From: a bacterium | GTDB lineage: Bacteria > Bdellovibrionota_C > UBA2361 > RFPC01 | DNA: 64,000 nucleotides | NCBI GenBank assembly: GCA_009926305.1 | Contig: RFPC01000005.1 | Location: 7,649 to 71,648, forward strand | Direction: 5' to 3' | Shown here: one piece after another, positions 6,196 through 39,765 of the stretch | Numbering within the stretch: the stretch's first letter is position 1 | Layout: each line of letters starts with the position of its first letter | Notes under the pieces: model-generated | The model's input: only the letters and a program-made list of their open reading frames with translations | The model's database searches: none | What the model was told of the DNA's origin: nothing | Made by a program: the position numbers and the translations under genes

Positions 6196-7827
6196 TTGAT
6201 GAACATGCTCTACTATTCTCCAACTATGAATTCTTGTTCCCAACACATTCAGCAGACCTCCCGAGTGTCACCCTCCTCCCGAGTGTCATCCCGAATAGTC
6301 GACCGATGTATTGGCTCGTCGATTGACTCAAACAAAGGCTCGGGTCGAAAAATAGGACCGGCATACTTCGGGCTCATTTTTTCTTTTCTCTTCACAACGC
6401 TCTGCTGCGCAACTCCTGGCTTCGCCCAGGAACAAGAGCAAGCATTGCAATATGCACAGAGTCTCTCTCGAGCCTTCGAAAGCGTCGCTACTACCATAAC
6501 GCCAGCGCTTGTTAATATTCGCGCCGTTTCAAAACCAGCAGCAACGCAAAATCTTCGCGGAGACAACAACGAACCGTCGCCTCTCCCTCCAGGGATTCCT
6601 GCCCCGTTTCGTGACTTTTTTGAACACTTCGGGAAGCAACCTCCGTTTAACGGCGACACGACTCCTCAACAAGGGTTAGGATCAGGAGTAATCGTGGACT
6701 CAGAGGGGCACATTCTTACCAACAATCACGTAATAGCGAATGCAGATGAGGTCTCCGTTCGCCTCTCCGATGGACGGTCATTCGATGCAACAATTGTAGG
6801 TGCCGACAAGAGAACAGATCTCGCAGTAATCAAGATAGATGCGCCGGAACTCATTCCGGCTGCACTGGGAGACTCTGACCATCTCAAGATTGGAGAATGG
6901 GTTGTTGCTGCAGGCACTCCGTTTGGACTTGAGAACACGATTACCGCTGGAATTGTCAGCGCAAAGGGTCGTTCAATCCTGGGCGGAAACTCTTATGAAG
7001 ACTTCATTCAGACCGATGCTGCCATCAATCCAGGCAATAGTGGAGGCCCGCTCGCAAATCTTAATGGTCAGGTAGTAGGTATAAACACCGCAATATTCTC
7101 TCGCTCAGGCGGATACATGGGGGTTGGATTTGCAATCCCTATCAATATGGCTCGACAAATCATGCAAAGTCTCATTACCGAGGGGAAGGTGGTTCGGGGC
7201 TGGTTAGGAGTGGTCATTCAAGAGCTATCCAAAGAACTCGCGGAGTCATTTCAATATAACGACACCAAGGGAGCTCTCGTTTCCGAAATCGCCGAGGATG
7301 GCCCGGCTGCGAAGGGCGGTCTTCGACAGGGTGACATCATCACAGAGTTTAATGGGAAACAAATTACCTCGGTCAATGACTTGCGCAATCTCGTTGCAGC
7401 GCAACGTCCAGAGACGAGAGTTGCAATTACTCTCATTCGCGATGGAAAGCAGAAACAGATACGGCTTACACTTGGGGAACTTCCGAATAATATTGAGCAG
7501 CCTGCTTCCCTCGACAAAGATGACTCGGCACAACCTGACTATCAGTCTTCGCTCGGCATCCACGTAGAGCCGCTAACTGATCAGTTACAACAACAACTCA
7601 GATCCAGAACGAAAACGGGAGTGGTGGTGACCCGTGTGGAACCTTCAAGTGCTGCTGCCGAGGCTCATATTCGGGTAGGAGATATTATAAAAAGTATTGA
7701 TGGTGAACCGATAACAACTATCAAAGAGTTTCAGAAACTGCTCGAAGCAGTTGACCTCAAGAAGGGAGCACGCGTGCTTTTAGAAAGTGGGGGCATTGAT
7801 CGCTTCGTCTTCATCCGGGAAAAGTAA
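6196..7827 (+). CDS. htrA: Periplasmic serine endoprotease HtrA/DegP/DegQ family (trypsin-like domain plus two PDZ)
   Basis: Catalytic triad context HILTNNHV...DLAVIKI...GNSGGPL followed by two PDZ-like regions. The N-terminal start is uncertain (TTG 6196 or ATG 6199/6205) because the hydrophobic segment lies about 60 aa in. Confidence 0.88.
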   Translation: MMNMLYYSPTMNSCSQHIQQTSRVSPSSRVSSRIVDRCIGSSIDSNKGSGRKIGPAYFGLIFSFLFTTLCCATPGFAQEQEQALQYAQSLSRAFESVATTITPALVNIRAVSKPAATQNLRGDNNEPSPLPPGIPAPFRDFFEHFGKQPPFNGDTTPQQGLGSGVIVDSEGHILTNNHVIANADEVSVRLSDGRSFDATIVGADKRTDLAVIKIDAPELIPAALGDSDHLKIGEWVVAAGTPFGLENTITAGIVSAKGRSILGGNSYEDFIQTDAAINPGNSGGPLANLNGQVVGINTAIFSRSGGYMGVGFAIPINMARQIMQSLITEGKVVRGWLGVVIQELSKELAESFQYNDTKGALVSEIAEDGPAAKGGLRQGDIITEFNGKQITSVNDLRNLVAAQRPETRVAITLIRDGKQKQIRLTLGELPNNIEQPASLDKDDSAQPDYQSSLGIHVEPLTDQLQQQLRSRTKTGVVVTRVEPSSAAAEAHIRVGDIIKSIDGEPITTIKEFQKLLEAVDLKKGARVLLESGGIDRFVFIREK

Positions 7828-8269: not shown

Positions 8270-9055
8270 TTAAGCGAAGAGCTCTGATTGTGTCAGGCGC
8301 TCTACCCCATCTTCAGTAACTAATACGGTGTGTTCCCACTGGGCTGACAATTCTCCATCCGCAGTTCTGACTGTCCATCCATCCACCTTGGAAAGAACTG
8401 TTTTTGCGGTGCCAAGATTAATCATCGGCTCGATGGTAAATGTCATTCCCGGGCGAATTTCAGGACCAGTGCCGCGACGACCAAAGTGAAGAATTTGGGG
8501 GGATTCGTGAAATGCTGCCCCAATGCCATGCCCTGTATACTCGCGAACAATTCCGTAAGGCCTCTCTAAGGATTCGATAAACTCTTGAATCGCTGCACCA
8601 ATGTCCCCAAACCGAGCTCCTGGTCGAACTGCTTCAATCCCTCGATAGAGAGCCTCACGCGTTAGCTGAACAAGCTTTACCGCCTCCTCTGAGCACGCAT
8701 CCTCACCACCGACAAGATACATTCGGCTCGAGTCCCCATGATATCCATGTTTGATAGAAGTAACATCAACGTTAATGATATCTCCCGCTTTCAATGTCTC
8801 ATAGGGAGAAGGAATACCGTGACAAATGACGTCGTTGACAGAAGTACATGACGACTTGGGAAAGCCATGATAGTCAAGAGTCGCTGGAATTGCGCCCCTC
8901 TCGGTTATCATATTGTGAACAAAGGTATTAATCTGCTCTGTAGTGATCCCTGGTCGGATGATATCTCCTACCTTATCAAGCACTTCAGCGGTAATCCGCG
9001 ACGCGGCACGCATGTACTCAATTTCTTTATCGGTTTTCAGTGGTATCTTTGACAT
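8270..9055 (-). CDS. map: Type I methionine aminopeptidase
   Basis: Metal-ligand context GDIINVDV...HGYHGD...FTIEPM. Chosen start is the internal ATG (MSKIPLKTDKEIEYMR), giving 261 aa; the longer ORF adds a hydrophobic extension. Confidence 0.88.
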   Translation of the reverse strand: MSKIPLKTDKEIEYMRAASRITAEVLDKVGDIIRPGITTEQINTFVHNMITERGAIPATLDYHGFPKSSCTSVNDVICHGIPSPYETLKAGDIINVDVTSIKHGYHGDSSRMYLVGGEDACSEEAVKLVQLTREALYRGIEAVRPGARFGDIGAAIQEFIESLERPYGIVREYTGHGIGAAFHESPQILHFGRRGTGPEIRPGMTFTIEPMINLGTAKTVLSKVDGWTVRTADGELSAQWEHTVLVTEDGVERLTQSELFA

Positions 9056-9119
9056 CGCAGTGAGTGTACATTGACCGTCGAGCAGGAGCAACGCTATCAA
9101 AGAGAAAAAGGGAATCACA

Positions 9120-9776
9120 TTGAAAACGCCCCAGATAAAAGAGTTTGATTCTTTCCCCCTCCTCAAGAATTCTCCCACTCTGATGTGCGCTCATTTCGAG
9201 GCGGTCTCACACATTGTGGTACATCCAAAAGAGCTCGAGCATGCTGAGAGACTGAGAACCGAGAAACGTCGAAGAGAATTTCTTGCTGGTAGAAGACTGG
9301 TAAAAGTAGCACTTGGAGATATCGGACCTATCTTGCCATCGGAGAAGCGAGTGCCGCTATTTCCAAATGGGATTCATGCTTCCTTAAGTCATTCGGAAGG
9401 ATATGTCGGACTGTTGCATGCGACTGAACAGCCTCTTGGGCTTGATATTCAGATAGAAAGAAGTGTTTCTCGCGGCTTTCAACAAAGAGTCTGTGCTTCA
9501 AAAGAGGAACACAAAATGGCACCAGTGAATGTGTTCTCAGCGAAAGAGGCAGCGTATAAGGCCCTATCGCCATGGCACGACTTCATTTTTTTCCCGAGAT
9601 TCATTGAATTACGAGAAATTGATGGAGGCACATTCTCGGTATTGAAGATTCGAGGGGAACAGCCTCTCAAGCCGGTGCTCATAAGCCAGTTTACAATTCC
9701 AGATGTCGTTGATGGGAGAGCCTGTATCATATCCGTTGCAGGAGTACCGAATAACACTGATTGTTACAGGGGGTAG
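9120..9776 (+). CDS. 4'-phosphopantetheinyl transferase (Sfp/EntD-type)
   Basis: Motifs LSHSEGYVG, GLDIQ and FSAKEAAYKAL (W/FxxKEA..K). TTG start with an AAAAGGGA RBS-like stretch 7 nt upstream; divergent from map. Confidence 0.7.
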   Translation: MKTPQIKEFDSFPLLKNSPTLMCAHFEAVSHIVVHPKELEHAERLRTEKRRREFLAGRRLVKVALGDIGPILPSEKRVPLFPNGIHASLSHSEGYVGLLHATEQPLGLDIQIERSVSRGFQQRVCASKEEHKMAPVNVFSAKEAAYKALSPWHDFIFFPRFIELREIDGGTFSVLKIRGEQPLKPVLISQFTIPDVVDGRACIISVAGVPNNTDCYRG

Positions 9777-9815: not shown

Positions 9816-11006
9816 TTATGCCACATCGCGAGAAGATTGTGCCCGGACTTCCACTCGCCCCTCAAGGAGATCAGTAGTAGCAACTTGAGAGAGCTGCTTT
9901 ACGGCCGTTGCAAGATCCCGAAATGTTAATTGAGCCTGTGCCTTGACGGCTAATACATCTCCATCGGGAATACATCCATCTCTCACTCTTCTCTTTAGAG
10001 CAATCTGAAACATTCCAAGGCAATACCCCATATTATGTATATAGGCTCGAAAGTTGACATCCATCGGCGTCTCACTTGAAAGCGCGCTAAAATGTTCGTC
10101 TAACTGATAGGAGGTGTCTCGCAAACTCTCGAGCATTGCATTCGCTTGGATTGGGGGGCTTTCCCGCTTTGCTCGCCGTCCAAAACCAATCGGATCTGAC
10201 GGATGCTCACTGAGCATATCGATAAAACTCAACAAGTGTTGCACCATGCTCGATGCCGTCTTTTGAACTGCAGGGAGCACACATGCTCGAAGCTCCTCCT
10301 GACGCTCAAACATCCGAGTAAAGAGAGAATCTTCCTTTATACTGAGGATGAGTGTGCCTTTTTCGGATGCTAACGGATGAACGGCAAGCTCAGCCTGAAC
10401 TCGAGAACTCAAGAGTCGAGATGCCACCTCAAGTGCTCCTGTTGCAAGCACGGCACGTAACTCTAAAAGTTCAAACGCTAGCGGTTCAATATAATCATCC
10501 GCTATACAGCCCTGGTCATACGAAGCTTCCTCCATGATGCAAATCGCCTGTTCAAGCCGTTGATGGATATGCCCATACGCCTCGAGTTTGACCTCCTCTG
10601 GCTCAGCCGAGGCAAGCTCGCTCTCTAGGAGCATTTTCATCGCTCGCAGGGAACTGCTTAATGTATCGGTGATAACCTCTCGGTGCTCAGACTCATCAGA
10701 TGGTGGCACATGAAATCCAATCTTCTTGATCTCATCCACGCACTCATTTAAAAAAATCCCAATCACATCTCGTGTGGCAAATGCTGCTGTCGTAAAGTCT
10801 GTGAACGAATTTCGTATATTTGCTATTCCCTGAAGACGGGATTCCAGCACTCCTCGCCCCGCGACGATCTCAGCGCGCTGCTCGCTTGCCCCACGTGGTG
10901 TATCATTCATGGCGCTTGCAAGGGGCTCAGTCTTCGCCTGTTGGCTTTTACTACGAGATGCTTTTTGTGCTTTTTGCGTAGCCTCGCTACAATTTTCGTT
11001 TTTCAT
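9816..11006 (-). CDS. Hypothetical protein (K/S/Q-rich disordered N-terminus, otherwise helical; no recognisable domain)
   Basis: 396-aa ORF with coding-like composition. No motif recognised. Confidence 0.5.
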   Translation of the reverse strand: MKNENCSEATQKAQKASRSKSQQAKTEPLASAMNDTPRGASEQRAEIVAGRGVLESRLQGIANIRNSFTDFTTAAFATRDVIGIFLNECVDEIKKIGFHVPPSDESEHREVITDTLSSSLRAMKMLLESELASAEPEEVKLEAYGHIHQRLEQAICIMEEASYDQGCIADDYIEPLAFELLELRAVLATGALEVASRLLSSRVQAELAVHPLASEKGTLILSIKEDSLFTRMFERQEELRACVLPAVQKTASSMVQHLLSFIDMLSEHPSDPIGFGRRAKRESPPIQANAMLESLRDTSYQLDEHFSALSSETPMDVNFRAYIHNMGYCLGMFQIALKRRVRDGCIPDGDVLAVKAQAQLTFRDLATAVKQLSQVATTDLLEGRVEVRAQSSRDVA

Positions 11007-28414: not shown

Positions 28415-29152
28415 CTATGCAGCTTGATTATCGAGCGCCTGCTCGCTTGCATACCGAGACCGCTTCTTTCTGCGCTGAATTTTCCTCATCTCTTGTAGGC
28501 TCGCTCCAGCAGAAGGTCTATCGTCACGCTCAAGGCTCTGTTCGAGTTCAATTTGCAGATTCTCAAGCGCTTTTTTCTTTACGCGAGAGATGTGACACCT
28601 GCTGTACCCCAATGAACTGGCAATCTTCATCAACTGCTCGCCTTGAAGAAACAGACGCTCAATTACTTCTCGCTCTAATGGATCTAGTCGCGTACATGCG
28701 CTCTTGCTCAGTTCAATCAACTCTTTTTGAAGCAAAAGGTCGTCTGGGTTACGCTGATCAGTACCAGAAATGGCCTCCACTACATCAAGTGCCGTAATGG
28801 TCTTTGGCTCTTCACCCTTCTTCCCTTCTATCTCCTGACCAGGTATAAAATTTGCCTGTGCTGCTGCAGTCACGGTACGAATCAAATTCCCCTTCAAATG
28901 ATAGTATAAAAACGTCATGAAGCTGGCCCCTTTTTCGGGATCAAATCGTTGCACAGCCTCACAAAGAGACAGGTCTACAACACTATCAACTTCTTCAAGA
29001 TCAAGACGTGCCTGCCACCTTCTCAAAATACTCCGTCCCAGCTTCCGGGCTTTGATTCGATACTCTAAAATCATTTCGTCGTTGAGAGCCTGCTCATTTA
29101 CCGTTCCCTTCTTTGTCTTCTGTGAACCTTTTCGAGCCTTAACCTTTGTCAT
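28415..29152 (-). CDS. Sigma-70-family sigma factor, group 3 / FliA(sigma-28)-like
   Basis: Region-2-like segment (RFDPEKGASFMTFLYYHLKGNLIR) and a region-4 HTH (LMKIASSLGYSRCHISRVKKKAL), 245 aa. Confidence 0.78.
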   Translation of the reverse strand: MTKVKARKGSQKTKKGTVNEQALNDEMILEYRIKARKLGRSILRRWQARLDLEEVDSVVDLSLCEAVQRFDPEKGASFMTFLYYHLKGNLIRTVTAAAQANFIPGQEIEGKKGEEPKTITALDVVEAISGTDQRNPDDLLLQKELIELSKSACTRLDPLEREVIERLFLQGEQLMKIASSLGYSRCHISRVKKKALENLQIELEQSLERDDRPSAGASLQEMRKIQRRKKRSRYASEQALDNQAA

Positions 29153-29448
29153 GCCACTTCTCCTGTAGAACCTACTGTACTGTTGATTTCAAATAACCTT
29201 TCCTGATCAGTCTTACTGAGCTCTTCGATACATGAGACCAGATCTAACAACCCTGCTTGGAGTAATAGTCGAGTCTGTGTAGCTGGAACATCCTCAACGA
29301 GCGTAAGCAGCTCTTGAATCGTATCCAGTGCCTGGTATCGTGTTTCTTTTATCGAATTCACTTGATTTGCTCCTTCAACTCGCCTTGCCCCTAAACAAGG
29401 AAAGACGGTGTGTGTCAGAGGCATCCCCTGACAAACACTGGTCAGCAC
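29149..29448 (-). CDS. Hypothetical 99-aa protein, translationally coupled upstream of the sigma factor (possible anti-sigma/FlgM-like)
   Basis: 4-nt overlap with the sigma-factor start. No motif recognised; the anti-sigma suggestion rests on position and size only. Confidence 0.35.
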   Translation of the reverse strand: MLTSVCQGMPLTHTVFPCLGARRVEGANQVNSIKETRYQALDTIQELLTLVEDVPATQTRLLLQAGLLDLVSCIEELSKTDQERLFEINSTVGSTGEVA

Positions 29449-29617
29449 TAAAGGACTAGCCGCTTCATAAAAAGTGATAACATATTGTATTTATTCTCTT
29501 TATTTATGGCTTTTTTCAGTCACTCGCAAAGAAAGGCGACTTGGTTCAGAAGAGGTTTGTAAGGATGTGTCGGGTATGCGAAAAACAGGGACAGGCTAGC
29601 AAAATAGGCACCATCAA

Positions 29618-30424
29618 ATGAGTGAAGATACCCCGCAGGATGACCAAGAGGGTTTATCCATCGAAGAAGCAAACGCACTTGTCGAGGAACATCGAGGCTG
29701 GGCTGAGAGTATAGCTCGGTCGGTTGCTCGTGGTTGGAACCTTGACTGGCAAAATGACGGACTCGATGGAGCTGCGATGGAGGCTCTGATCTTTTGCTCG
29801 AGACGGTTTAATCCAGAGCGTGGCATCCCGTTTCGTGGCTATGCAAGACGAAGAATACATGAAGCCTCTACTGAAGCAGCCCGAGTATCAAAAGGCTGGA
29901 CACGCTCGGGGTCTGATACACAGTTTGAACGACTTGCTAAAGAGGTATCGATTGAACTTTTTGAACTCTTTCCCGAACTTCGCAGTGGAGCTATTCCTAT
30001 GTCGCTTGACCAAGAGGAAGGCGATAAGGCAATGCGCGCGAGCATCAGACAACTCTTAATCGGCGCAACTCTCGTCACCACGCGACAGGGGCTCGCCTCA
30101 GCTTCGCTCGATGATATCGTTGATACGAAACGAATGGTGACCTTCTTAGCGCATCTGGAAGTAATTCATCAAATAATCATATGGCGAATGTATTGGCATG
30201 GGGATTCAATGAGAGCAATCGCATCCGAGTGGGAAATGGACGAGCTGAATGTAATCCGAGAACATAAGGCCCTTGTCGACCATTTACAGAGGGCAATCGA
30301 AAAAAACAGCTCCTTTGAACCGCTAAAAGTCCGACCTGCACTCAGGCCGCTCTCTATTGAAATGAAACAAAGAAAGCAGGCGGGCCCCTTTACAGAACTC
30401 TATGCGCAAGGACAGAAAACGTAA
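29618..30424 (+). CDS. Second sigma-70-family sigma factor, FliA/group-3-like
   Basis: Region-2-like segment (RFNPERGIPFRGYARRRIHEA) and a region-4 HTH (MRAIASEWEMDELNVIREHKALVDHL), 268 aa. Confidence 0.72.
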   Translation: MSEDTPQDDQEGLSIEEANALVEEHRGWAESIARSVARGWNLDWQNDGLDGAAMEALIFCSRRFNPERGIPFRGYARRRIHEASTEAARVSKGWTRSGSDTQFERLAKEVSIELFELFPELRSGAIPMSLDQEEGDKAMRASIRQLLIGATLVTTRQGLASASLDDIVDTKRMVTFLAHLEVIHQIIIWRMYWHGDSMRAIASEWEMDELNVIREHKALVDHLQRAIEKNSSFEPLKVRPALRPLSIEMKQRKQAGPFTELYAQGQKT

Positions 30425-30497
30425 TGGCCTTTACGCCTCAGGGAAATATCAAAAACCAGTAAGGGAAAAAATCCAGAATGACTGTAGGAAAACAAAA

Positions 30498-30848
30498 ATG
30501 AGCGATGAAAAAGACAAGAAAAACGTCAAGGGAATCAGTAAAACACAGAAGACCACTTCCGTATCAAAAGTTGATAACATTGAAGAGGTAAAGAAAGTTG
30601 GAAAAACAACTGGTGTAAAACGCTCCGGCAAAACTCCGCAGGCTGGCGACAACCTGCAACGCCTGCGATTTGAAGACCGCGAGAAACTTTTAGGAATGGT
30701 TGATGAAGAAGCAAAAAACCTATTCCGCTCAAGCAAGTTGCCAGAGGAGCAAAAACGCCTTATCCGAGAAGCAGTAAAAATGGCGATTGATTCAGCACTT
30801 GTTGAGGAAGATGATACCAAGAAGACAAAAGAGGACGAAAAGAATTAA
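30498..30848 (+). CDS. Lysine/glutamate-rich small protein (possible histone-like/nucleoid-associated or secreted protein)
   Basis: AGGAAA RBS 7 nt before ATG 30498. Highly charged, low-complexity 116-aa product. Confidence 0.4.
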   Translation: MSDEKDKKNVKGISKTQKTTSVSKVDNIEEVKKVGKTTGVKRSGKTPQAGDNLQRLRFEDREKLLGMVDEEAKNLFRSSKLPEEQKRLIREAVKMAIDSALVEEDDTKKTKEDEKN

Positions 30849-30911: not shown

Positions 30912-31448
30912 TTAGGAAGTCTTTGAAGAACCGCCTGTTAGCCGTTCCTCGAAACGCAGCACCTGAGCTTCGTATAGCTGCCGAAGCTCAGGTCGCATTC
31001 GCTCACTAGCAGCTAGTCGATCTGAAACTTCTCCCAGATATGTTCCCCCAGTCTGAAAGTCTTTTAATTGAAAATGCGCCAAGACGAGGAATAACAAGGC
31101 TTCCATCGAAGAGTTCCGTAATTCAAGAGCTCGATGAGCAGCCGAGATAGTCTCCCCGTAATCTTCCCTCATCAAAGAGGCATACGCTATTACCAGCCAT
31201 GCATTTACATGCGTCGGCTCTATCGACACGAGCCCTCTGGCGACTCTCTCAGCAGTGGCAATCTCTCCGCTTTCTATAAATATTCGACTCAGGGAATAGA
31301 GTGCATCCAGCTCTGTTGTGGAATAACCATGGCGAACAATCGCTCGATCCCCCCGAGGCGAGAGTGCTTTTGACGATTCCATCGGTTGATTACCACCACT
31401 TACTTCCTCATCCGAAATAGTGGCCTCGGACTTGTTCTCATTTGCCAT
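30912..31448 (-). CDS. TPR-repeat protein resembling class II type III secretion chaperones (SycD/LcrH/Scc2-like)
   Basis: Three TPR-like helical pairs in about 178 aa. Lies at the distal end of the sct export-apparatus operon. Confidence 0.55.
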   Translation of the reverse strand: MANENKSEATISDEEVSGGNQPMESSKALSPRGDRAIVRHGYSTTELDALYSLSRIFIESGEIATAERVARGLVSIEPTHVNAWLVIAYASLMREDYGETISAAHRALELRNSSMEALLFLVLAHFQLKDFQTGGTYLGEVSDRLAASERMRPELRQLYEAQVLRFEERLTGGSSKTS

Positions 31449-31707
31449 GATCATCTTCTTGTAAAGCAATCCAATCAATCGCAATCTTTAACATATCACG
31501 CTCATCACGCCTCTGTCGCTCTGATTCTCCCATAGTGACCCGCGAATTACTTGCGCCCTCCACCTCTTGCTCGACCCGTTCCATTCGCGCAAGTAACGCT
31601 GCACGTAACTTTGGAAGCTCACCAGCATTCTTGCCTTGCGGGACGAGCGCCAACAAGGGGAGTCGTGTTTCATCATGAAACATGAGTTCCTCAATTCGAC
31701 TTTTCAT
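31438..31707 (-). CDS. Hypothetical 89-aa charged helical protein inside the T3SS operon
   Basis: ORF between the 4-TM protein and the TPR chaperone, overlapping the chaperone start. Confidence 0.35.
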   Translation of the reverse strand: MKSRIEELMFHDETRLPLLALVPQGKNAGELPKLRAALLARMERVEQEVEGASNSRVTMGESERQRRDERDMLKIAIDWIALQEDDHGK

Positions 31708-31750
31708 CTTCTTCCCTTTGAATTACCGATTCGCAGTATTCTTTTTAATC

Positions 31751-32293
31751 TTAGCTATCACTTGGCCCCTTCAGAAAGGACTTTTGTATAAACACAAGAA
31801 GAATATTTAAAAATCCTAAACTTACCACCAAGATCATAGCAACTAAAAACAGATAGGAGTACTCTAGGATTTCGCCTAAATCCCCGTCAGACCGATATAA
31901 AAGTGACTCTTGAATGAGCTTGGGGAAAAGAAAATAGACTGCTGCAAAAAAAGCTGAAATGAACACTCCACTGAACAGGAAGTACGCTCCTAAGAGAAAG
32001 AACGTGCTCCAATAGGTGCGTGACTGACTCTCTCCTGATGACCAAATAAAAGTATGAGCAGCTTTAGAAAACAGGACTATTGGGACAATTAGTAAGGGAA
32101 GAGCAATGACCAACACTATCTCTCGACCACATGCTGATAAACACTCTGCAAGATGACCCTCTAGACACGGCTTTATGGTGAGTGAGAGCTCTTTGAGGAG
32201 AGCCTGATAAACGAAAGGGGAAAAGCAAAAAAACGCCACTGAGCAGAGTGTCAGTGTTGCTACGGCATTCCTAAAAGCTGATTCAGACTTCAC
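31751..32293 (-). CDS. 4-TM membrane protein occupying the SctU position but lacking SctU/FlhB motifs
   Basis: Four hydrophobic helices. No FSxK..NP..G.KR loop and no NPTH cytoplasmic domain. Confidence 0.45.
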   Translation of the reverse strand: MKSESAFRNAVATLTLCSVAFFCFSPFVYQALLKELSLTIKPCLEGHLAECLSACGREIVLVIALPLLIVPIVLFSKAAHTFIWSSGESQSRTYWSTFFLLGAYFLFSGVFISAFFAAVYFLFPKLIQESLLYRSDGDLGEILEYSYLFLVAMILVVSLGFLNILLVFIQKSFLKGPSDS

Positions 32294-32308
32294 TCGATTA
32301 TTATCCTA

Positions 32309-32926
32309 TTAACCGGGCAGTAATAGCTCGTGGAGAAAATATTGGCTTATCGATTGACAAGAAATGGCCAGAAGCAAGAGCACCAGAGGAACAACTGCAA
32401 TCTGATACGTGATGGAAAAGCTAAGCTCTACTCTATTTCTTCTTACTATTAGGGGGATACTCACGAGGTACACAATGAAAGCGAGAAGTGCGTATACAAG
32501 TACATAGGCACAACCCACAAGAATGCCCCACTTCAGAACCATTGAAGTGAAATATGAAAATACAGAGAGAAGAACTTCGGCACGGTGCCGCATGTATATC
32601 TCCACAATGCCATGGAGCACGTCTTCACTGAGCAGCTCCGGCAGTAAGAACATCATCACGACACACGGAAGCCACCTGTAACACATGTGATCTTCAAAAA
32701 GGTCCCGAAGTCCAACCCTCTCGAAAAGACAACTTATAAGAAGCCAAGTGAGCGGGATAGCACACAGTGCAACGACCGCACACAATAACCCCAAAAAGGA
32801 AAAGGGGACCTGAATACTCACGAGGAGAAGACATAGGACAAGACACGGCGCTGCAATGACCGTCATGACTGGAGAGAGGACACAACCGAGAAAGAGTCCA
32901 GCCCCTGCTATTGCAAACTCAGTCAT
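32309..32926 (-). CDS. sctT: Type III secretion export apparatus protein SctT (FliR family), short form
   Basis: Polytopic 205-aa membrane protein immediately downstream of sctS. The call rests on synteny and topology. Confidence 0.5.
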   Translation of the reverse strand: MTEFAIAGAGLFLGCVLSPVMTVIAAPCLVLCLLLVSIQVPFSFLGLLCAVVALCAIPLTWLLISCLFERVGLRDLFEDHMCYRWLPCVVMMFLLPELLSEDVLHGIVEIYMRHRAEVLLSVFSYFTSMVLKWGILVGCAYVLVYALLAFIVYLVSIPLIVRRNRVELSFSITYQIAVVPLVLLLLAISCQSISQYFLHELLLPG

Positions 32927-32954
32927 CCTACGACACCCTGCTCACAATCCGAGC

Positions 32955-33200
32955 CTATCCTACCACCAGGTAGAGCGTTCTCGTCTCTTCGATAAAAAAA
33001 TTAATCATAGGGGCTCCCAGCAAAATTAATGCAAAAAGCGCCCCGATAACTCTTAGTGCATAGTTTAAGGTGTAATCTTGGATCGAGAAGAAGCCCGTTA
33101 AGAGATAGCCCAATAGCCCAAATCCAACGATACATCCCGTTACGGGAACCCCCACTATGAGAAACATCCGAATTATCGTTGAGAATACATTCAATTCCAT
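32955..33200 (-). CDS. sctS: Type III secretion export apparatus protein SctS (FliQ family)
   Basis: 81 aa with two TM helices. SIQDYTLNYALRV matches the FliQ QINEMTLSFIPKI block, and ETRTLY matches YVRTLF. Confidence 0.7.
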   Translation of the reverse strand: MELNVFSTIIRMFLIVGVPVTGCIVGFGLLGYLLTGFFSIQDYTLNYALRVIGALFALILLGAPMINFFIEETRTLYLVVG

Positions 33201-33205
33201 GACAT

Positions 33206-33868
33206 TTATCCTGAAATGTAATCTCCGGCTAGCCTCTGGATTAACATCCCCCAACCATCGACAACCAGAAAAAGAAGAAGCTTCATTGGCAATGAAAAAC
33301 ATAAAGCTGGCAACTGTGTCATTTGCAACAACTGCATCACGTGCACCACGAGGAGATCAATGATCACAAATGGCAAAATGAAGAGAACTCCAAGCTGAAA
33401 TGCGCCCTCGAGCTCATCCAAGAGAAAACTTACAAGTACAGGATAAAACCCTGACTGCTTCCCTATCTGCTCAGGGTTCGGTGCCGATTCCGTCATTCCC
33501 GCACTACTCTTCACTGGCGCTTGAAACTTATCTCGAAGTTCAGACTGCAGCCGTGATATCTCCTCCCTGCGTTCGGGATCCGTTCTTTGCTCAAGAAACG
33601 GCACAATACGTTGCTCAAGCATACTCTCTCTTTGTTCTGGAGCAGAGAGGGTTGTCATCAGATTACCTACAGGGACAACAGAATCAACCACAAAGAGAGC
33701 GAGAACGGCTGAAAAAATCATAACAACCACGCCCACGGTAGCGCCATGAAACCCGAGGCCAATACGAAAAATTTGAAGAGTCGTAAAACTCTTTAAGAAT
33801 CCCCCCGTAAGAAGGACTAAAATGATGAGAGCTATCTGATAACTCGCTGCGTTTGCATCAATTCCCAT
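33206..33868 (-). CDS. sctR: Type III secretion export apparatus protein SctR (FliP family)
   Basis: C-terminal PFVIIDLLVVHVMQ...LPMKLLLFLVVDGW matches the FliP signature PFLVIDLVVASVLM...LPFKLLLFVLVDGW. Confidence 0.85.
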   Translation of the reverse strand: MGIDANAASYQIALIILVLLTGGFLKSFTTLQIFRIGLGFHGATVGVVVMIFSAVLALFVVDSVVPVGNLMTTLSAPEQRESMLEQRIVPFLEQRTDPERREEISRLQSELRDKFQAPVKSSAGMTESAPNPEQIGKQSGFYPVLVSFLLDELEGAFQLGVLFILPFVIIDLLVVHVMQLLQMTQLPALCFSLPMKLLLFLVVDGWGMLIQRLAGDYISG

Positions 33869-33975
33869 GAAGGGTATTGTGAAGAAAAGAACGTCATTTC
33901 ACTAGCCGCTATTTTCAGACGCTCATCGACTGGGAAGACCGTTCGAACGGTCTCTTTCATGATTATCTCTATCCG

Positions 33976-35022
33976 CTATTGCTCTCCGATGACCTTTACA
34001 AAGAGCTGAGACTCATAGGCAACCAGAATCCCATGTCCGACCTTTTTATGCGCGACAGAAATATGAATTTTAGGCTGTTTCGCAGAAGATGCGAGCTTAT
34101 GAAGCGCACCCGGCTGGGAAAGAAGAGCACTCTCAGCTTTTGAAAGTTCTATCTCCTCTAGCTCAAACGTTACAGAAGTCATTCCATCAGCATTCGCGAT
34201 GCCTTCGTTCGCTTCTCCTCTTGCTTGAAAAACGAGTTGATCATCGTGAGTGAAAAGTGATCCCTCAAGCCATGGCTGCTCATCCATGAGCAACACGACT
34301 GAATCGCTACCACCAAAATTGATCGGAAGCGTCTTGCCAGGAACAAGGCTATCACCTACCTCCGAGGGGAGAAATGCAGTGCTCCCAAAAACAACCCTCA
34401 CACGTGCCCTCTCCTCAGCAGAAGGTATTCCTTTTAATATTTGTGTAATCCACAATTGATCGAGCCTATCCATCAGCCCTTGGCTTATTCCTATAACAAG
34501 CGAAAGCTCCTCGCCATTCAGCCGAAAATCAAGCCGAACGCCACCAACGCAAGCCTCTGAAGGAGCACTAACATCACTTTGAAAGCGGAAGACGCCCCCT
34601 TCGTTCGCACTCCAAGATGACGCAAGGCTCGTCATGAATCTTCTTGCAAAATATTCTATCATCAGATGTTTAGCGGTAAGGGATGCGGCTGGAGCTTGAG
34701 TTCTCGTAATACATTCAGACAAGGACCTCGGAATAAAAAGAGAAACAGTCTCTCCATCAAGACTCCCATGAAAGGCGACTCCCTCTCCGGCATCGAGATC
34801 TATGAGCGGAGTAGTTCCGCACTTTTCATGATGTATATCGAAGGTGTGAAAAAGCGGTAGCCAATGAGCAGTAAATCCAGGAAACCATACCTCTGGTTGG
34901 GACCGAAGAAAGCCTCTTGAGAAACGGATATCCTCAGCACTTACCGCTGATAGCTCAGTTAACGGATCCCATGCCCGAAAGTCACTCTCCCCGTACTGTT
35001 GTTCATCCGACGCAATCGACAT
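33976..35022 (-). CDS. SctQ-like cytoplasmic-ring component (C-terminal SpoA/FliN-like domain); SctL not excluded
   Basis: C-terminal approximately 70 aa resemble the SpoA fold pattern (ELSKAESALL...IHISVAHKKVGHGILVAYESQLFVKVI). Lies directly upstream of sctR as in yscQRST. Confidence 0.4.
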   Translation of the reverse strand: MSIASDEQQYGESDFRAWDPLTELSAVSAEDIRFSRGFLRSQPEVWFPGFTAHWLPLFHTFDIHHEKCGTTPLIDLDAGEGVAFHGSLDGETVSLFIPRSLSECITRTQAPAASLTAKHLMIEYFARRFMTSLASSWSANEGGVFRFQSDVSAPSEACVGGVRLDFRLNGEELSLVIGISQGLMDRLDQLWITQILKGIPSAEERARVRVVFGSTAFLPSEVGDSLVPGKTLPINFGGSDSVVLLMDEQPWLEGSLFTHDDQLVFQARGEANEGIANADGMTSVTFELEEIELSKAESALLSQPGALHKLASSAKQPKIHISVAHKKVGHGILVAYESQLFVKVIGEQ

Positions 35023-35051
35023 GAATTACTCTTCTAATATTCTCTAAACCC

Positions 35052-35312
35052 TCATTCCTGCAAACGTTCATCCTTCACATCAGCAGTTCGACTTTGCAAC
35101 TCTTCTAATGCACGTCTCAGCGCGTCGCCCGCTAAAATGTTCCTGAACTCTGGCGATGCGGCCACAAAATCTTTCGCTGCCTTTGCCAGCTCTTCACCTG
35201 CTAACGAATCATTGTCAAGATAAAGCTCGGCCTCATGTCCATCGAGCAGCACTGCTATTGCTACCATTGCTCGCTGATGCGCTGAAAGGGAACGAAATTT
35301 CTCGAGCTTCAT
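35052..35312 (-). CDS. Hypothetical 86-aa helical protein coupled to sctJ
   Basis: 4-nt overlap with the sctJ stop. No motif recognised. Confidence 0.35.
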   Translation of the reverse strand: MKLEKFRSLSAHQRAMVAIAVLLDGHEAELYLDNDSLAGEELAKAAKDFVAASPEFRNILAGDALRRALEELQSRTADVKDERLQE

Positions 35313-36217
35313 AGTTGCGACCTCCGATCATCATCACGAACATCGAACGGTTGTAACTGTAAGGGCTCGCCGTTACGGAACGAATCAAGGGAAGACATTT
35401 GGCCCCGAGAGGCAGTGGTAATGACGCCAAACCAATATCCCCCGAAAATCCCTGCAACAGCAACAAGCACCAAGACACCAAGAAGTGAGAGCACGATAGC
35501 TGGATAATCTGCTGCTGCCACTTTCCAGCCAAAGAATAATTCAACCCAATCGAACTTCTCTCCGTCGAGGCTAGCCTCACTAACTCCCTCCCCCTCTGGC
35601 TCATGAGAAAAAATCGCCAGATGAATCCTGTCGGCCTCTAGCTCTGGAATAATTGACTGTAGTAGGGCCTGTATTTCCGAGCGAGGAGCGAGAGAGGCAT
35701 CTTTTACTTTCAAAACGACCGATGCTCCGCGATCTTCCTTCACGACTTGAAGATCATCTGTATTCGTCTTCTTTGCCGGTCTCTCAGAATGGAGTCGCAA
35801 CACGACTCGAGCAGAGGCGACATCAGGAAGATTCTCTAAGAGGGACTCTATCTGTAGTGAACGCGCAAAATCTAAGCGCACCGCTTCTACCATGCGCGAA
35901 TCCGGAAGAAATGAACTGGTCGAGAGGGTGGAGAGAACTTCACTGCGAGAGGACTCAGGAATTCCCTTCTCGTGCAAGATTCGGATGGCCGTAGAGAAAT
36001 CTCTGGGAGCAACCTCCACCAAGAAATTGCCAACTCCTCTTCTCTTCCGAGTGAATGAAGCTTCAATGCCGTTCTTGCTCAGCACTGCTACCACTTCTCG
36101 AGCTTGGTCTTGAGAAATGTCCTCAGCAACGGGAACGTCCGAACAGCCCATCATCAAGAGGCTCATGACCACAGCAGCAAAACAATAAACACACAGTCTT
36201 TTATTCACGTGAGTCAT
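35309..36217 (-). CDS. sctJ: Type III secretion inner-membrane ring lipoprotein SctJ (YscJ/PrgK/EscJ family)
   Basis: Lipobox LLMMGC followed by a YscJ-like N-domain (ISQDQAREVVAVLSKNGIEA...AIRILHEKGIP) and a C-terminal TM helix. Confidence 0.8.
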   Translation of the reverse strand: MTHVNKRLCVYCFAAVVMSLLMMGCSDVPVAEDISQDQAREVVAVLSKNGIEASFTRKRRGVGNFLVEVAPRDFSTAIRILHEKGIPESSRSEVLSTLSTSSFLPDSRMVEAVRLDFARSLQIESLLENLPDVASARVVLRLHSERPAKKTNTDDLQVVKEDRGASVVLKVKDASLAPRSEIQALLQSIIPELEADRIHLAIFSHEPEGEGVSEASLDGEKFDWVELFFGWKVAAADYPAIVLSLLGVLVLVAVAGIFGGYWFGVITTASRGQMSSLDSFRNGEPLQLQPFDVRDDDRRSQL

Positions 36218-36262
36218 GGGGTTTTCCTCTAAGCCTCTCGAACGTAACGTGAGAGCGGTATC

Positions 36263-37375
36263 CTAACCTCGCGGTAAAGATGGAATAAGCGTCACCAGAA
36301 ACTCTTGCTCACCAAAACGTACCCAGTCTCCATGACCGAGTATGATGGCTTCTTCTTCTTTCCGATAGATGGCATCACCTTCCCGACGGACAAAAACACC
36401 TGTCTCACTCATGAGATCCTGTACAAGCAATCCATACTCATCAGAAAGTGTCATGAGCGCATGTGGTGTTGAAACAGAGGGATGATCAAGGACGAAATCT
36501 TTATCTTTCAGCGGTGTGCGACTGACAAAGAACTTCCCCTCTCTCAGCTCGTAGCCTACGCCGTTGGCAACCGAAAAACTGACAAGCCACCCATGCAATA
36601 ACCCTTGATTATCTTGAGCTTGCTGAGCTGCTACAGCTCCCCTAGCAGAGACGCCCTGTTCTCCCATCGCTCCATCTTGGTTTCTGCGCGGCGCTGATTC
36701 CTCTCGCCGCCGTCCTTGTCTCCTTTGTTCGCGCCACATACGAGACGCCTCTCCTTCAAAGGTTGCTTCAGCTTCATGAGAAGACTCATCGGGTGTCTTT
36801 TGTTTCGCTCTGCCACCGAAAGAGAGCCCTTTCTTGGACGAGCCTCGCTCCATTCTTACTCGCGGAGCAACAGATTCAGTTGATTCTTCCACTCGCGGCT
36901 GACGCGGCGCTTGAGTCACTAACGGTGCCTCATCATCATCGACAACATCATCGAAATCCTCTTCTAAAAACCCTGCTTCGTCCCCCGCCTCGAAAATGTC
37001 AGAGTCCATTTCCTCCACCAGGTCTTCCTCTTCCTCCTCCTGAATCGCTTCTGGATAATCACTCTCTTCTCTTATCGGCTCACTCGCAGCAAGCTCCTCG
37101 TCCTCTTCATCTTCAAAATCCTCAAGATATGCTCCAAGCGGATCATCAAAATCATCCTCAGCTTCAGCGGGAGCGCTTTCAAGGGCAGACTCAGGAGTTG
37201 AAAAGTCATCTTCCTCTGCACCTGATGCCAGCTCATCCTCTTCGAGTCCAGCTCCACACATTCTGCAACGAGTCGACACCGCCGGCACAAGACTCCGACA
37301 CGATGGACAACGAACAAAGGTTAATTCAGTGCTATCAGTGGCCATTTTTTTCTCCTTTAGATAAAAACCCTTCAA
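36263..37375 (-). CDS. Zinc-ribbon / acidic-linker / C-terminal FHA-domain protein
   Basis: CPSCR-x11-CRMCG zinc ribbon, about 130-aa D/E-rich linker, and a C-terminal FHA (GxxFVSRTP...HALM...LLVQDLMSETGVFV). Coupled by 4 nt to the upstream gene. Confidence 0.7.
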   Translation of the reverse strand: MKGFYLKEKKMATDSTELTFVRCPSCRSLVPAVSTRCRMCGAGLEEDELASGAEEDDFSTPESALESAPAEAEDDFDDPLGAYLEDFEDEEDEELAASEPIREESDYPEAIQEEEEEDLVEEMDSDIFEAGDEAGFLEEDFDDVVDDDEAPLVTQAPRQPRVEESTESVAPRVRMERGSSKKGLSFGGRAKQKTPDESSHEAEATFEGEASRMWREQRRQGRRREESAPRRNQDGAMGEQGVSARGAVAAQQAQDNQGLLHGWLVSFSVANGVGYELREGKFFVSRTPLKDKDFVLDHPSVSTPHALMTLSDEYGLLVQDLMSETGVFVRREGDAIYRKEEEAIILGHGDWVRFGEQEFLVTLIPSLPRG

Positions 37376-38706
37376 AAAAGTAACGAAACAACAAGCATTG
37401 ACGCTACAAGTAATGCGAGCGCTACAAGAATTCCTGTTACGAGAACTCCTACCCGTTCATACGAACCAAGCGCTAAGAATCCTGAAACAAAACGATTCGG
37501 TCTCGTATTCATCTCGAACTGGGAGAGCGCCTCTTGAGGAACTCCAGGGGCAGCCAATGTTTGGCGGCTCGGCACTACTTCTCGCGAATCTCTCTCTTCC
37601 CCCTCTTTCTGAGTAAAGGTAGAAGGAGCACCATTGCTCTCAAGGAACATCTCTTCATGCTCTTCCGAAAAACAGATGGCAACGGTAATACCACCGCCAA
37701 AATTCAACACACACGGGCTATTCTCGAGGTGAACGGATTCTCCTTGCGTTAGCACCCCACCATCATACGCGAGTCCATTCATACTGAGGTCCGTGATGAG
37801 AATATCCTCAAGGCTGATAAATTCAATAGTTGAGTGTTTCCGCGACACATGCGGCGCACCAAGCCAAAGATCACTTGAGGGATCTCTGCCAATCCTGAGG
37901 GGCTTTCCTTCTTGAATCAGCAATTTCTGCGGACGAGCGACTTCTGAGAGTGACATCAGCAGCGGATAGCGTTCCTCTGGAAGTATCTGCAGATCAACCT
38001 CTGCAGTTTGACGGGGCACTGAGACTTGCTCTTCTTGATCGATTGCATACGCAACAATGCTTCTCCCAATGATAATTGGCTTTCCAGGAGGAATCTGATT
38101 TTTCCCTGAAACTTGCTGTGCTCCCACAAAGGTTCCATTTGTAGAACCGACATCCTCAATAAAAAATTTCCCAGCTTCATACGTCACATTGGCATGCCTT
38201 GCAGATACATCAGGAGCGTCCAAGCGAAGTGCATTATCTCGATCTCTACCAATCGTCAGCGGAAGATCTGGCGAAAACGAAATAGTGACTGGAGCATCTC
38301 CGCTTACCGCCAGCGCAGGGAAATACGGCGCCGGGTTTTCACACGCTCTGCGTAAAATGTGAGCTGCTACCTTATCAAGGGCATCTCCTCGCATAGAGCA
38401 AAGGTCAAGATCGAGTGCAGTGATAGAAAGCTGTATGGAGCCCAGGTTCAGGCTCGCTTCCCCATCATATTCCCGATCGAGGTAAGCAGGGGTTTCAACT
38501 CGCAAGTGAGAATGCGAAATAAGCGGCTGAGTTCGGAAAGTCCGGCCAATACCTCTATACAGATGAAGTTCATACGGCAGTTCAGCAAGTTCATCGATTA
38601 GCACGTGGGCGTAGTCGCTGGCTCCAATGACCGCGTGTGACCTGCGGACGAAGACCGTTTCAGTATCGGCCCCATCACCATTAAAAGTTATTTCTAACGA
38701 AAACAT
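37372..38706 (-). CDS. Triple-FHA-domain protein with C-terminal TM tail anchor (SctD-like cytoplasmic module, atypical)
   Basis: Three FHA cores (e.g. LTIGRDRDNALRLDAPDVSARHANV...EDVGSTNGTFV and LRIGRDPSSDLWLGAPHVSRKHSTI...DLSMNGLAYDG) and a terminal hydrophobic helix (VLVTGILVALALLVASMLVVSLLF). Confidence 0.75.
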   Translation of the reverse strand: MFSLEITFNGDGADTETVFVRRSHAVIGASDYAHVLIDELAELPYELHLYRGIGRTFRTQPLISHSHLRVETPAYLDREYDGEASLNLGSIQLSITALDLDLCSMRGDALDKVAAHILRRACENPAPYFPALAVSGDAPVTISFSPDLPLTIGRDRDNALRLDAPDVSARHANVTYEAGKFFIEDVGSTNGTFVGAQQVSGKNQIPPGKPIIIGRSIVAYAIDQEEQVSVPRQTAEVDLQILPEERYPLLMSLSEVARPQKLLIQEGKPLRIGRDPSSDLWLGAPHVSRKHSTIEFISLEDILITDLSMNGLAYDGGVLTQGESVHLENSPCVLNFGGGITVAICFSEEHEEMFLESNGAPSTFTQKEGEERDSREVVPSRQTLAAPGVPQEALSQFEMNTRPNRFVSGFLALGSYERVGVLVTGILVALALLVASMLVVSLLF

Positions 38707-39013: not shown

Positions 39014-39382
39014 ATGACGAGACACAAGAAGATTCTCATTATCGATGACGACATGATCGCTCTAGACATTGTCGATCTTCTCTTCGAAGAGCATGGCTTT
39101 GAAGTTATTCGCAGCTCAGATGGCTGCCGCGCAATCTCTGCTATCGATGACACCGCACCAGACATCGTTTTGGTTGACTTGATGATGCCAAAGATGAGTG
39201 GTCAAGAGTGCATTCAAGCACTGAGAGCCAAAGGGCTAAACGTTCCAATCGTCGCCTTCACCGCTATTGATGATCCTGAAGTGCATGCGGATGTCGAAAC
39301 CCTCGGGGGGAGCCTCGTATTAACGAAGCCATGCAAACCATCACTCCTCTTGAAGGAGGTCGAAGCTCTTCTTGACGCTTGA
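39014..39382 (+). CDS. Single-domain response regulator (CheY-like receiver)
   Basis: KILIIDDD...DIVLVDLMMP...PIVAFTA receiver signature, 122 aa. Confidence 0.85.
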   Translation: MTRHKKILIIDDDMIALDIVDLLFEEHGFEVIRSSDGCRAISAIDDTAPDIVLVDLMMPKMSGQECIQALRAKGLNVPIVAFTAIDDPEVHADVETLGGSLVLTKPCKPSLLLKEVEALLDA

Positions 39383-39432: not shown

Positions 39433-39765
39433 CTATTCATCCCAAGAGACCTGAAGCGCTATTCTCCCTATAAGAATTTGATCGCCATCCTGCAGCGGGT
39501 AAACTTTTCCCTCTTCAAGCTGCACTGCTCCATTCAAGATTGTGCCATTCAGACTCCCCATATCGATAATCGAGAGTTCATCACCCGACATCTCAATGGT
39601 GGCATGTTTCCGAGAAACCCGAGCATCCTCATCAATCGCGTCCAAATCTATTTCTGGAAACACTCCGGCAGTCGGATCCCACCGTCCAATGAGATTTTGA
39701 CCCTCTCGAATTGGATACTGCTTCTTTTTGCGCTTGCCATCCCATATCTGTAAATAAACGGACAT
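39433..39765 (-). CDS. Standalone FHA-domain protein
   Basis: FHA core LIGRWDPT...VSRKHATIE...IIDMGSLNGT, 110 aa. Confidence 0.75.
   Translation of the reverse strand: MSVYLQIWDGKRKKKQYPIREGQNLIGRWDPTAGVFPEIDLDAIDEDARVSRKHATIEMSGDELSIIDMGSLNGTILNGAVQLEEGKVYPLQDGDQILIGRIALQVSWDE

Follow-up and report, generated by a model that had tools for sequence, protein, structure and literature searches.

The 64,000-nucleotide stretch of DNA analysed here (hereafter the window; contig RFPC01000005.1 of assembly GCA_009926305.1, from a bacterium of the Bdellovibrionota_C) carries on its minus strand an operon of 11 genes, at positions 30912-38706, that encodes type III secretion system (T3SS) components together with two FHA-domain proteins. 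We consider it probable that this operon specifies the inner-membrane and cytoplasmic core of a reduced, needle-less, non-flagellar T3SS-like machine that is particular to this lineage, regulated by phosphorylation and tied to a Tad-like pilus. Neighbouring genes within it either overlap or leave gaps of 107 nt at most. All nine open reading frames (ORFs) from sctJ to a TPR gene, which an initial annotation had described as a partial, non-flagellar T3SS locus, were found on the minus strand where it had placed them, and the cluster is larger than that, since the two FHA genes adjoin sctJ on its upstream side with the same tight packing and are part of the operon. The window proteins match exactly the locus tags EBR25_01890-01930 (proteins NBW39734-NBW39744) and several metagenome contigs. 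In the public NCBI annotation all of the Sct genes are listed as 'hypothetical protein', a label that public databases give to nearly every gene of this system. Every T3SS score of these proteins falls far under the NCBIfam curated cutoffs, indicating a very divergent system.

The ring protein, SctJ, matches the YscJ model TIGR02544 end to end (model positions 4-188 of 193; 82 bits against a cutoff of 162), has a signal peptide that ends in Gly-Cys, the lipobox cysteine, with a Gly-preceded Cys conserved in relatives, and carries a single C-terminal transmembrane (TM) helix at residues 240-258 followed by a cytoplasmic tail of about 44 aa. These are the features of an injectisome ring protein, namely a YscJ-type lipoprotein of about 250-300 aa with a C-terminal TM helix. 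SctR has the length of SctR proteins, without the N-terminal extension of the FliP type, and scores 89 bits with EscR/YscR, 77 bits with yscR and 71 bits with fliP among the NCBIfam models, all under cutoff. The profile of its clade matches FliP at 1e-42 and SpaP at 2e-38, and reaches 100% against generic FliP in hhalign, so that SctR is, by profile comparison, equidistant from FliP and SpaP. Its family is small and isolated, spanning 100 to 31% identity, with the closest named member from a Bdellovibrionota metagenome-assembled genome (MAG), and outside this family only matches of about 30% were obtained, to SctR and FliP alike. SctS starts at an internal ATG: the mechanically derived ORF of 115 aa overlaps sctR, and gene callers give 81 aa on identical contigs. 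The SctS clade profile matches generic FliQ in hhalign at 98.5%, and both SctR and SctS, the export-gate subunits of an injectisome, are present. The ORF list and the PF01514 and PF00813 matches thus confirm the ORF positions and the sctJ and sctR identities of the initial annotation; the strong FliP and FliQ signatures that it had reported hold for SctR and were overstated for SctS, whose single-sequence score lies at the borderline (Table 1).

The initial annotation had described the gene between sctJ and sctR as encoding a SpoA protein, which is confirmed, and as L/Q-like in the gene order; the product is a SctQ-like protein with tandem SpoA domains and not SctL. As a single sequence it matches PF01052 with 23.3 bits at residues 208-266 and TIGR02551 SpaO_YscQ at 284-344, and the clade profile matches YscQ-C (5e-5) and FliY at 201-272 and FliN (1e-3) at 280-341, placing the SpoA domains at the C-terminus as in SctQ.

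One genome per GTDB species was scanned with an FHA2 alignment, which yielded 58 loci; per-gene hidden Markov models (HMMs) were built from these and then iterated, and the counts given below were made on 61 non-redundant loci (numbered with the prefix L). Nearly all of the 58 loci from the FHA2 scan belong to MAGs titled Bdellovibrionota, Bdellovibrionales, Oligoflexia or 'Deltaproteobacteria', and none of the syntenic relatives is from the Planctomycetes-Verrucomicrobia-Chlamydiae (PVC) group. The recurrent order is RNaseG(-) FHA0 RR(-) FHA1 FHA2 J sm1 Q R S T U sm2 TPR sigB(-) sigA, where RR is a response regulator and sm1 and sm2 are small ORFs, and finding the same gene order in 61 non-redundant loci of other genomes places the cluster far beyond chance. 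FHA2, sctJ, the sctQ-like gene and sm1 were found in 57-60 loci (60, 58, 58 and 57, respectively), FHA1 in 51, sctR and sctS in 40, the T and U genes in 36 and 33, and sm2 and the TPR gene in 40-41 (41 and 40); all eleven genes occur together in 21 of the 61. HMMs built without the lineage of the window recover 10 of the 11 window genes, FHA1 with an E-value of 1.6e-156 and the SctT-slot ORF with 1e-10, and the ORF in the SctU slot is the exception. Across about 60 species-level genomes of uncultured Bdellovibrionota, this sequence comparison shows a vertically conserved operon whose chromosomal context stays the same.

Table 1 Operon genes and neighbouring features, in order along the minus strand (positions are those of the window)
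Feature	Position	Strand	Description and matches
FHA0	39433..39765	-	Stand-alone FHA protein, 110 aa; gene call and PF00498 on identical contigs
Response regulator	39014..39382	+	Stand-alone receiver domain; PF00072 78 bits; divergent from the operon
FHA1	37372..38706	-	444 aa, first operon gene; PF00498 93.8 bits (2 stretches), PF16697 Yop-YscD_cpl 46 bits
FHA2	36263..37345	-	360 aa, soluble; PF00498 30.9 bits
SctJ	35309..36217	-	Inner-membrane ring lipoprotein, YscJ type; PF01514 42 bits (cutoff 24.4)
sm1	35052..35312	-	86-aa helical protein; overlaps the sctJ stop codon
SctQ-like protein	33976..35022	-	348 aa; N-terminal domain and two C-terminal SpoA domains
SctR	33206..33868	-	FliP family, 220 aa; PF00813 90.8 bits, E 1e-25
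SctS	32955..33200	-	FliQ family, 81 aa; PF01313 24.6 bits (cutoff 25)
Probable SctT	32309..32926	-	205 aa, all-helical membrane protein; position, topology and weak FliR signal
4-TM ORF, SctU slot	31751..32293	-	180 aa; four hydrophobic TM helices; no family match
sm2	31438..31707	-	89 aa, conserved; gene overlaps the TPR gene
TPR protein	30912..31448/31484	-	178 aa, last operon gene; TPR families matched
Lys-rich ORF	30498..30848	+	About 115 aa, downstream of sigB; low-complexity/disordered N-terminus, conserved helical C-terminus
sigB	29618..30424	+	Sigma-70 family, weakly FliA/WhiG-like; PF04542 18 bits, TIGR02479 25 bits
sigA	28415..29152	-	Group-3-like sigma factor, FliA/SigF-like; PF04545 31, PF04542 25, TIGR02479 42 bits

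The two genes that follow sctS are considerably more diverged. The 205-aa ORF is probably an extremely diverged SctT, as suggested by its position, its helical membrane character and a non-significant FliR match. A corresponding ORF separates S from U in 36 loci, and the clade profile, compared with four references, was closest to the FliR profile from flagellar loci (hhalign 4.7%, E 0.009; non-significant). The initial annotation had called this gene sctT, an assignment that stands as a probable one on the gene's place in the operon and that no significant family match backs. The slot downstream of it holds, in relatives, the membrane domain of FlhB/SctU (PDB FlhB 5e-18, SpaS 2e-12; hhalign against generic FlhB 99.4%). 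The median length of these clade SctU proteins is 208 aa, they cover only positions ~1-230 of the model and many of them have an N-terminal KTEWPT...LR..G motif, and NPTH occurs in none of them; with the TM domain only and no NPTH, they have no substrate-switch domain. The slot therefore does not hold a full SctU, with four TM helices and an autocleaving NPTH cytoplasmic domain, and the earlier statement that sctU must lie elsewhere is amended accordingly, to a truncated SctU within the operon of the relatives. The 4-TM ORF of the window has neither the KTExPT N-terminal motif nor an NPTH domain, and its sole homologue among 1.84 billion representatives is the ORF in the same slot of a sister lineage, at 30% identity, compared with 60% for SctR between the same two lineages. 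A profile of these two sequences comes out weakly in favour of clade SctU against T, S and R (hhalign 19% local, 42% global). On this comparison, the truncated, TM-only SctU probably survives in the window ORF as a fast-evolving remnant.

The two FHA proteins point to phosphorylation as a mode of control. Of the three FHA-like domains of FHA1, two carry canonical phosphothreonine-binding motifs, and the top PDB matches of the protein are the canonical phosphothreonine-binding FHA proteins GarA and OdhI. FHA1 occupies the position of SctD, and its single TM helix is formed by the last 19 residues (426-444), which leaves it no periplasmic part; the combination of FHA-like domain, TM helix and periplasmic ring domain that characterizes SctD is thus not found. 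FHA2 is built of an N-terminal Cys4 zinc-ribbon-like motif and a C-terminal FHA domain, joined by a long acidic linker of low complexity. Its residues 1-32 (window 37250-37345, minus strand), MATDSTELTFVRCPSCRSLVPAVSTRCRMCGA, are identical among relatives of 36-42% overall identity, and on this evidence the zinc-ribbon-like N-terminal peptide appears to be under extreme constraint. An isolated match to the FHA2 N-terminus only was seen in an Akkermansiaceae MAG (L071). Upstream of FHA1, the stand-alone response regulator is directly adjacent in 42 of 45 assessable loci, and the stand-alone FHA0 occupies the same upstream position in 21 of the 61.

As the initial annotation had stated, genes for SctV, SctN, the SctC secretin and the needle are absent from the window, and Tad and flagellar genes were likewise not found in it by Pfam on all large ORFs and by the clade HMMs. 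One distant relative (L011) has a FHIPEP gene (SctV) just upstream of the operon, and this SctV scores 541 bits with hrcV compared to 488 bits with FlhA, both under cutoff. A database search with the clade SctV returned at least 8000 candidates with E <= 1e-20, of which the best 120 had 43-65% identity and came from a Bdellovibrionota-type MAG wherever the organism was named. In seven of seven contexts examined, TadB-TadC is immediately upstream of SctV and a kinase/HEAT protein of about 820 aa immediately downstream, the usual array being PP2C - FHA-like - Ser/Thr kinase - TadZ - Flp - RcpC - TadA - TadB - TadC - SctV - kinase/HEAT. At three loci (L011, L015 and L067) this array is contiguous and co-oriented with FHA1...TPR and lies directly upstream of it, and in the complete genome CP129486.1 the tad-SctV module and the core operon are 1.4 Mb apart (L014, L035). 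By analogy with CP129486.1, the genome of the window would carry its SctV and tad module outside the window. The kinase/HEAT protein (L011:3002-5419, L014:12216-14693, L015:12106-14529) gave only weak Pkinase matches, and by eye the catalytic loop of the L011 protein is degenerate (HGVVCGDL compared to HRDLKPxN); judging from these residues, it may be a pseudokinase scaffold.

A rough neighbour-joining tree places the clade SctV as a monophyletic group outside both the flagellar and the injectisome groups, with mean distances of 0.70 to the non-flagellar (NF) and 0.72 to the flagellar proteins, compared to 0.64 between these two. The tree is a crude one, built by a distance method with a midpoint root and subject to possible long-branch effects. 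Its references, shared with the hhalign comparisons, were flagellar and NF loci from a metagenome scan with a SctV alignment (generic FlhA/SctV, 31-39% identity among the matches listed), and Myxococcales references were not among them.

Taken together, these parts and their arrangement suggest a mechanism in which SctJ, R, S, T, probably U, and V would together form an export gate in the inner membrane that has neither a needle nor a dedicated secretin, while Ser/Thr phosphorylation, read by the FHA proteins, would control its assembly or activity. The gate would cooperate with a Tad-like pilus, as has been proposed for the contact-dependent killing of Myxococcus xanthus by Kil and T3SS*, and the sm2-TPR pair would serve as a substrate/chaperone module. 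From this arrangement we infer an activity in export, a coupling to the Tad pilus and any role that the machine may have in predation.

By gene content and context, the closest described system is the needle-less T3SS* of Myxococcus together with Kil. In M. xanthus, T3SS* is recruited by, and works with, a Tad-like Kil pilus in contact-dependent killing, and FHA proteins abound in the kil clusters (PMC12075869, PMC10433427, PMC12428579). Abby and Rocha (2012) placed the 'Myxo' NF-T3SS at the base of the injectisomes, with secretin and needle absent and the export apparatus, SctJ and SctQ kept (PMC3459982), and the same absence and the same retained parts were found here. Both systems have a non-flagellar core with SctJ, SctQ, SctRST(U) and TPR (LcrH-like) proteins and with no secretin, needle or translocon in the cluster, both are vertically conserved in a lineage of the former 'Deltaproteobacteria', and both are accompanied by a Tad-like pilus and FHA proteins (PMC3459982, PMC10433427, PMC12075869). 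They differ in several respects. The T3SS* of M. xanthus (mxan_2434-2464) includes SctN, SctI and, in the long locus, SctD (PMC10433427), whereas no SctN, SctL or SctI was seen near either Bdellovibrionota module, and the protein in the SctD position combines FHA domains with a TM helix and has no periplasmic ring. In addition, the SctV of the Bdellovibrionota lies inside the tad operon, with one co-oriented tad-SctV-kinase-core array in some genomes, their SctU lacks the cytoplasmic switch domain, and the host phylum is another one.

Several observations weigh against the reading of the operon as the core of a needle-less machine working with a Tad pilus. The coupling to Tad would rest on gene adjacency. 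The SctT protein has no significant similarity to FliR/SctT and no Pfam, NCBIfam or PDB match; a profile search of a database of 5.8 billion proteins yielded just 13 members of the family, of which none carries a Pfam domain, and the AlphaFold2 (AF2) model from a 12-sequence alignment was poor (pLDDT 58) and gave no fold match with Foldseek against the PDB. The 4-TM ORF of the window is not recovered by the clade SctU HMM when its own lineage is left out, and, on sequence comparison, appears too diverged for SctU homology to be demonstrable. In 9-10 of 41 assessable species the locus lacks R-S-T-U, and Q is followed directly by sm2-TPR (L030, L041, L042, L045, L048, L052, L053, L055, L072), with a gap between Q and sm2 of -55 to 60 nt or of about 920-950 nt. 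At these loci R-S-T-U have been lost or relocated, and in the MAG JALEGQ01 R-S-T lie with sm2-TPR on one contig (L009) and J...Q on another (L043). Finally, no gene for a T3SS ATPase, SctL, SctO, SctI, needle or secretin was found at any locus. A regular expression for the Walker A...DSxTR motif of the ATPase had no match in the window or, within 10 kb of the modules, in loci L001-L073; no ATPase family is listed in the SctV contexts examined beyond these; and secretin, needle and translocon genes are absent from the window and from the gene calls of the related loci and SctV contexts. The ATPase, needle and secretin genes could sit elsewhere, or the machine could operate without classical protein export.

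Some of these observations are also what would be expected of a decaying relic, a formerly complete T3SS whose function is gone and which is now eroding: T and U are extremely divergent, the U-slot ORF of the window being 30% identical to its sister-lineage orthologue compared with 60% for SctR, the switch domain of SctU is lost, no ATPase was seen in the scanned loci, and R-S-T-U are missing from some of them. We regard a relic as very unlikely, given intact ORFs, tight packing and a constant order maintained in about 60 species while SctR diverged to about 31% identity, and given the strong conservation of FHA1, FHA2, J, sm1 and Q, with an invariant FHA2 N-terminus. The same argument has been used against a relic reading of the Myxo T3SS (PMC3459982).

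A stronger form of the needle-less, Tad-linked reading, to which we give less credence and which is best regarded as speculative, is that of a hybrid machine, a minimal gate (SctJ, R, S, T, V and an SctU lacking its switch) that is wired both genetically and physically to the Tad pilus. In such a hybrid, SctV would be the tenth gene of the tad operon, there would be no dedicated ATPase, needle or secretin, and a Ser/Thr kinase / PP2C / multi-FHA phospho-relay would govern the whole machine. The Tad pilus, possibly with its TadA ATPase, would then be the outer conduit or motor for substrates of the T3SS gate, and the arrangement would be direct genomic evidence in favour of the coupling that has been postulated, and not accounted for, in Myxococcus Kil/T3SS*; next to flagella and injectisomes, it might also be a third T3SS lineage of deep origin. 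How needle-less T3SS function and how they cooperate with a Tad pilus is a question posed explicitly in PMC12075869. Two reviews confine the co-occurrence of Kil and T3SS* to the Cystobacterineae, and the Bradymonadia have since been proposed as another case. The Bdellovibrionota would offer a second, phylum-wide case of Tad and T3SS* co-occurrence, and with it a comparative handle on the coupling, as well as a minimal conserved part list, which lacks an SctU switch domain, an SctD ring and a nearby ATPase, and a further deep branch for reconstructing the origin of injectisomes from flagella. A search of the literature found no description of a T3SS of this kind in Bdellovibrionota.

The initial annotation had likened the gene order to the split injectisomes of Chlamydiae and the PVC group, in which case the operon would be a cdsJ...cdsT-like piece of a full, needle-bearing T3SS with its other genes scattered. 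The chlamydial order is cdsJ-(CT560)-cdsL-cdsR-cdsS-cdsT, which the succession J - small ORF - X - R - S - T with small membrane ORFs resembles, and the chlamydial system is likewise accompanied by FHA proteins and Ser/Thr kinases, CdsD containing an FHA domain and Pkn5 being a kinase. The T3SS genes of the relatives are indeed split between loci, and the two systems share a short operon with J...R-S-T as well as FHA domains and Ser/Thr kinases. We nevertheless consider this affinity highly improbable, and the comparison did not bear it out. The relatives all carry titles of the Bdellovibrionota/Oligoflexia type, another phylum, with none from the PVC group; a tandem-SpoA SctQ-like protein takes the place of SctL between J and R; SctU lies within the operon of the relatives and is truncated; and the SctV clade falls outside the generic NF-T3SS group in the rough tree. 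The chlamydial system has a needle, a secretin, an ATPase and a full-length SctU and SctD, whereas no secretin, needle or ATPase gene is near either module at any locus.

A paralogous flagellar export gate, or a part of a flagellum, is scarcely credible. R and S are clear homologues of FliP and FliQ, the U slot of the relatives matches the TM domain of FlhB and scores slightly higher against FlhB than against SctU, SctS is about equal against FliQ and SctS, and a sigma-28-like factor is nearby, all of which a flagellar gate would account for. The ring protein is a YscJ-type lipoprotein and not FliF, however, and SctV scores higher against hrcV than against FlhA. Genes for FliF, FliG, FliM, FliN, FliO, FliE, rod, hook and Mot proteins are absent from the window and from all 61 loci, as is the FlhB C-terminal domain. 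The initial annotation had named neighbours of the fliO, fliN and flhA type as a sign that would overturn its non-flagellar assignment; with a YscJ-type lipoprotein and none of these neighbours in the window or the 61 loci, that assignment is upheld. In an uncultured Bdellovibrionales MAG, whose assembly also contains an FHA1...Q module (L065), the PP2C-...-Tad-SctV operon has a canonical FliR gene (PF01311; L158:1-413) a few genes away on its upstream side. A canonical FliR in a relative might in itself suggest a flagellar origin of the gate, but its presence there indicates that the flagellar export gate of this lineage is separate from the system of the core operon.

Of the smaller operon products, sm1 has a mean column identity of 48%, and no Pfam (42 members), PDB-sequence or fold match was obtained for it (AF2 single-sequence model, pLDDT 68). 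An impression by eye of a FliG_N-like domain in sm1 was unsupported by Pfam on the 42 members, by the PDB profile search and by AF2 with Foldseek. The sm2 protein has invariant residues P17, L21, P23, R41, E69 and M72, and its gene remains paired with the TPR gene even at loci without R-S-T-U. Both sm2 and the Lys-rich ORF near sigB were considered as known T3SS substrates or FlgM, and neither gave a match, with no Pfam or PDB match for sm2; sm2 is a candidate partner of the TPR protein, either as a substrate or as a co-chaperone. The TPR protein is of the size of T3SS chaperones, about 145 aa in relatives, and scores 29 bits with SctY and 26 bits with LcrH/SycD in NCBIfam, both under cutoff. 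That a TPR protein closes the operon was confirmed, and the class-II-like chaperone role that the initial annotation gave it is at most suggested: a specific T3SS chaperone was rejected as an identification, with SctY/LcrH sub-threshold and the PDB profile search yielding only generic TPR proteins. A small gene overlapping a small TPR gene, with weak SctY/LcrH matches, is shared with the YscX-YscY (SctX-SctY) pair of Yersinia and with class II/III chaperone pairs, from which the present pair differs in these sub-threshold scores and generic matches of the TPR protein and in that sm2 matches nothing.

Downstream, sigB is convergent with the end of the operon and adjoins the TPR gene in 17 loci, the Lys-rich ORF is found at the same position in 18 other loci (jackhmmer) with no Pfam family, and sigA, conserved in 15 loci, is preceded by an ORF of 91-99 aa at 29149-29448 that is conserved in 6 other loci. 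Each sigma gene in this region (window 28415-30848) is thus paired with a conserved small ORF, and from this pairing they could be sigma/anti-sigma pairs; FlgM or another anti-sigma factor, tried as an identification of the small ORFs, gave no family match. Two group-3-like sigma factors adjoining the operon, each with its small ORF, of which the one of about 115 aa has a disordered N-terminus, and the conservation of these neighbours in 15-18 loci raise the alternative that the gate exports a small anti-sigma-like regulator and so frees the FliA-like sigma factors in the manner of FlgM-FliA, with no delivery of effectors. We judge a purely regulatory export device unlikely, as the small ORFs have no signature of FlgM or another anti-sigma factor and the linkage of SctV to tad genes and kinases would be left unexplained; it is also compatible with, and not exclusive of, a needle-less machine tied to a Tad-like pilus.

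The G+C content of the cluster matches that of its surroundings (45.8-49.8% within the window). The remainder of the 64-kb window holds housekeeping genes, among them those for PBP1, MsrA, HiPIP, ProDH/P5CDH, MreB, RNase G, UvrBC, ScpAB and ComEC, and amid these a 396-aa ORF on the minus strand (9816-11006) for which no Pfam family was found at E <= 0.001. A scan of the region for promoters and terminators gave site counts below, or no higher than, those of shuffled sequence. Two loci carry, in an unrelated context, an orphan gene of the FliP family (L012:10001-10678, L013:2729-3406), encoding a protein of 225 aa about 32% identical to the SctR of the window and lying between NTP_transf_8 and DUF2330 genes with no further T3SS gene within 10 kb. 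At L010, two genes are inserted in the operon, a 123-aa coiled-coil-like ORF (7191-7562) between sm1 and Q and an Acyl_transf_3 gene (8618-9718) between Q and R.

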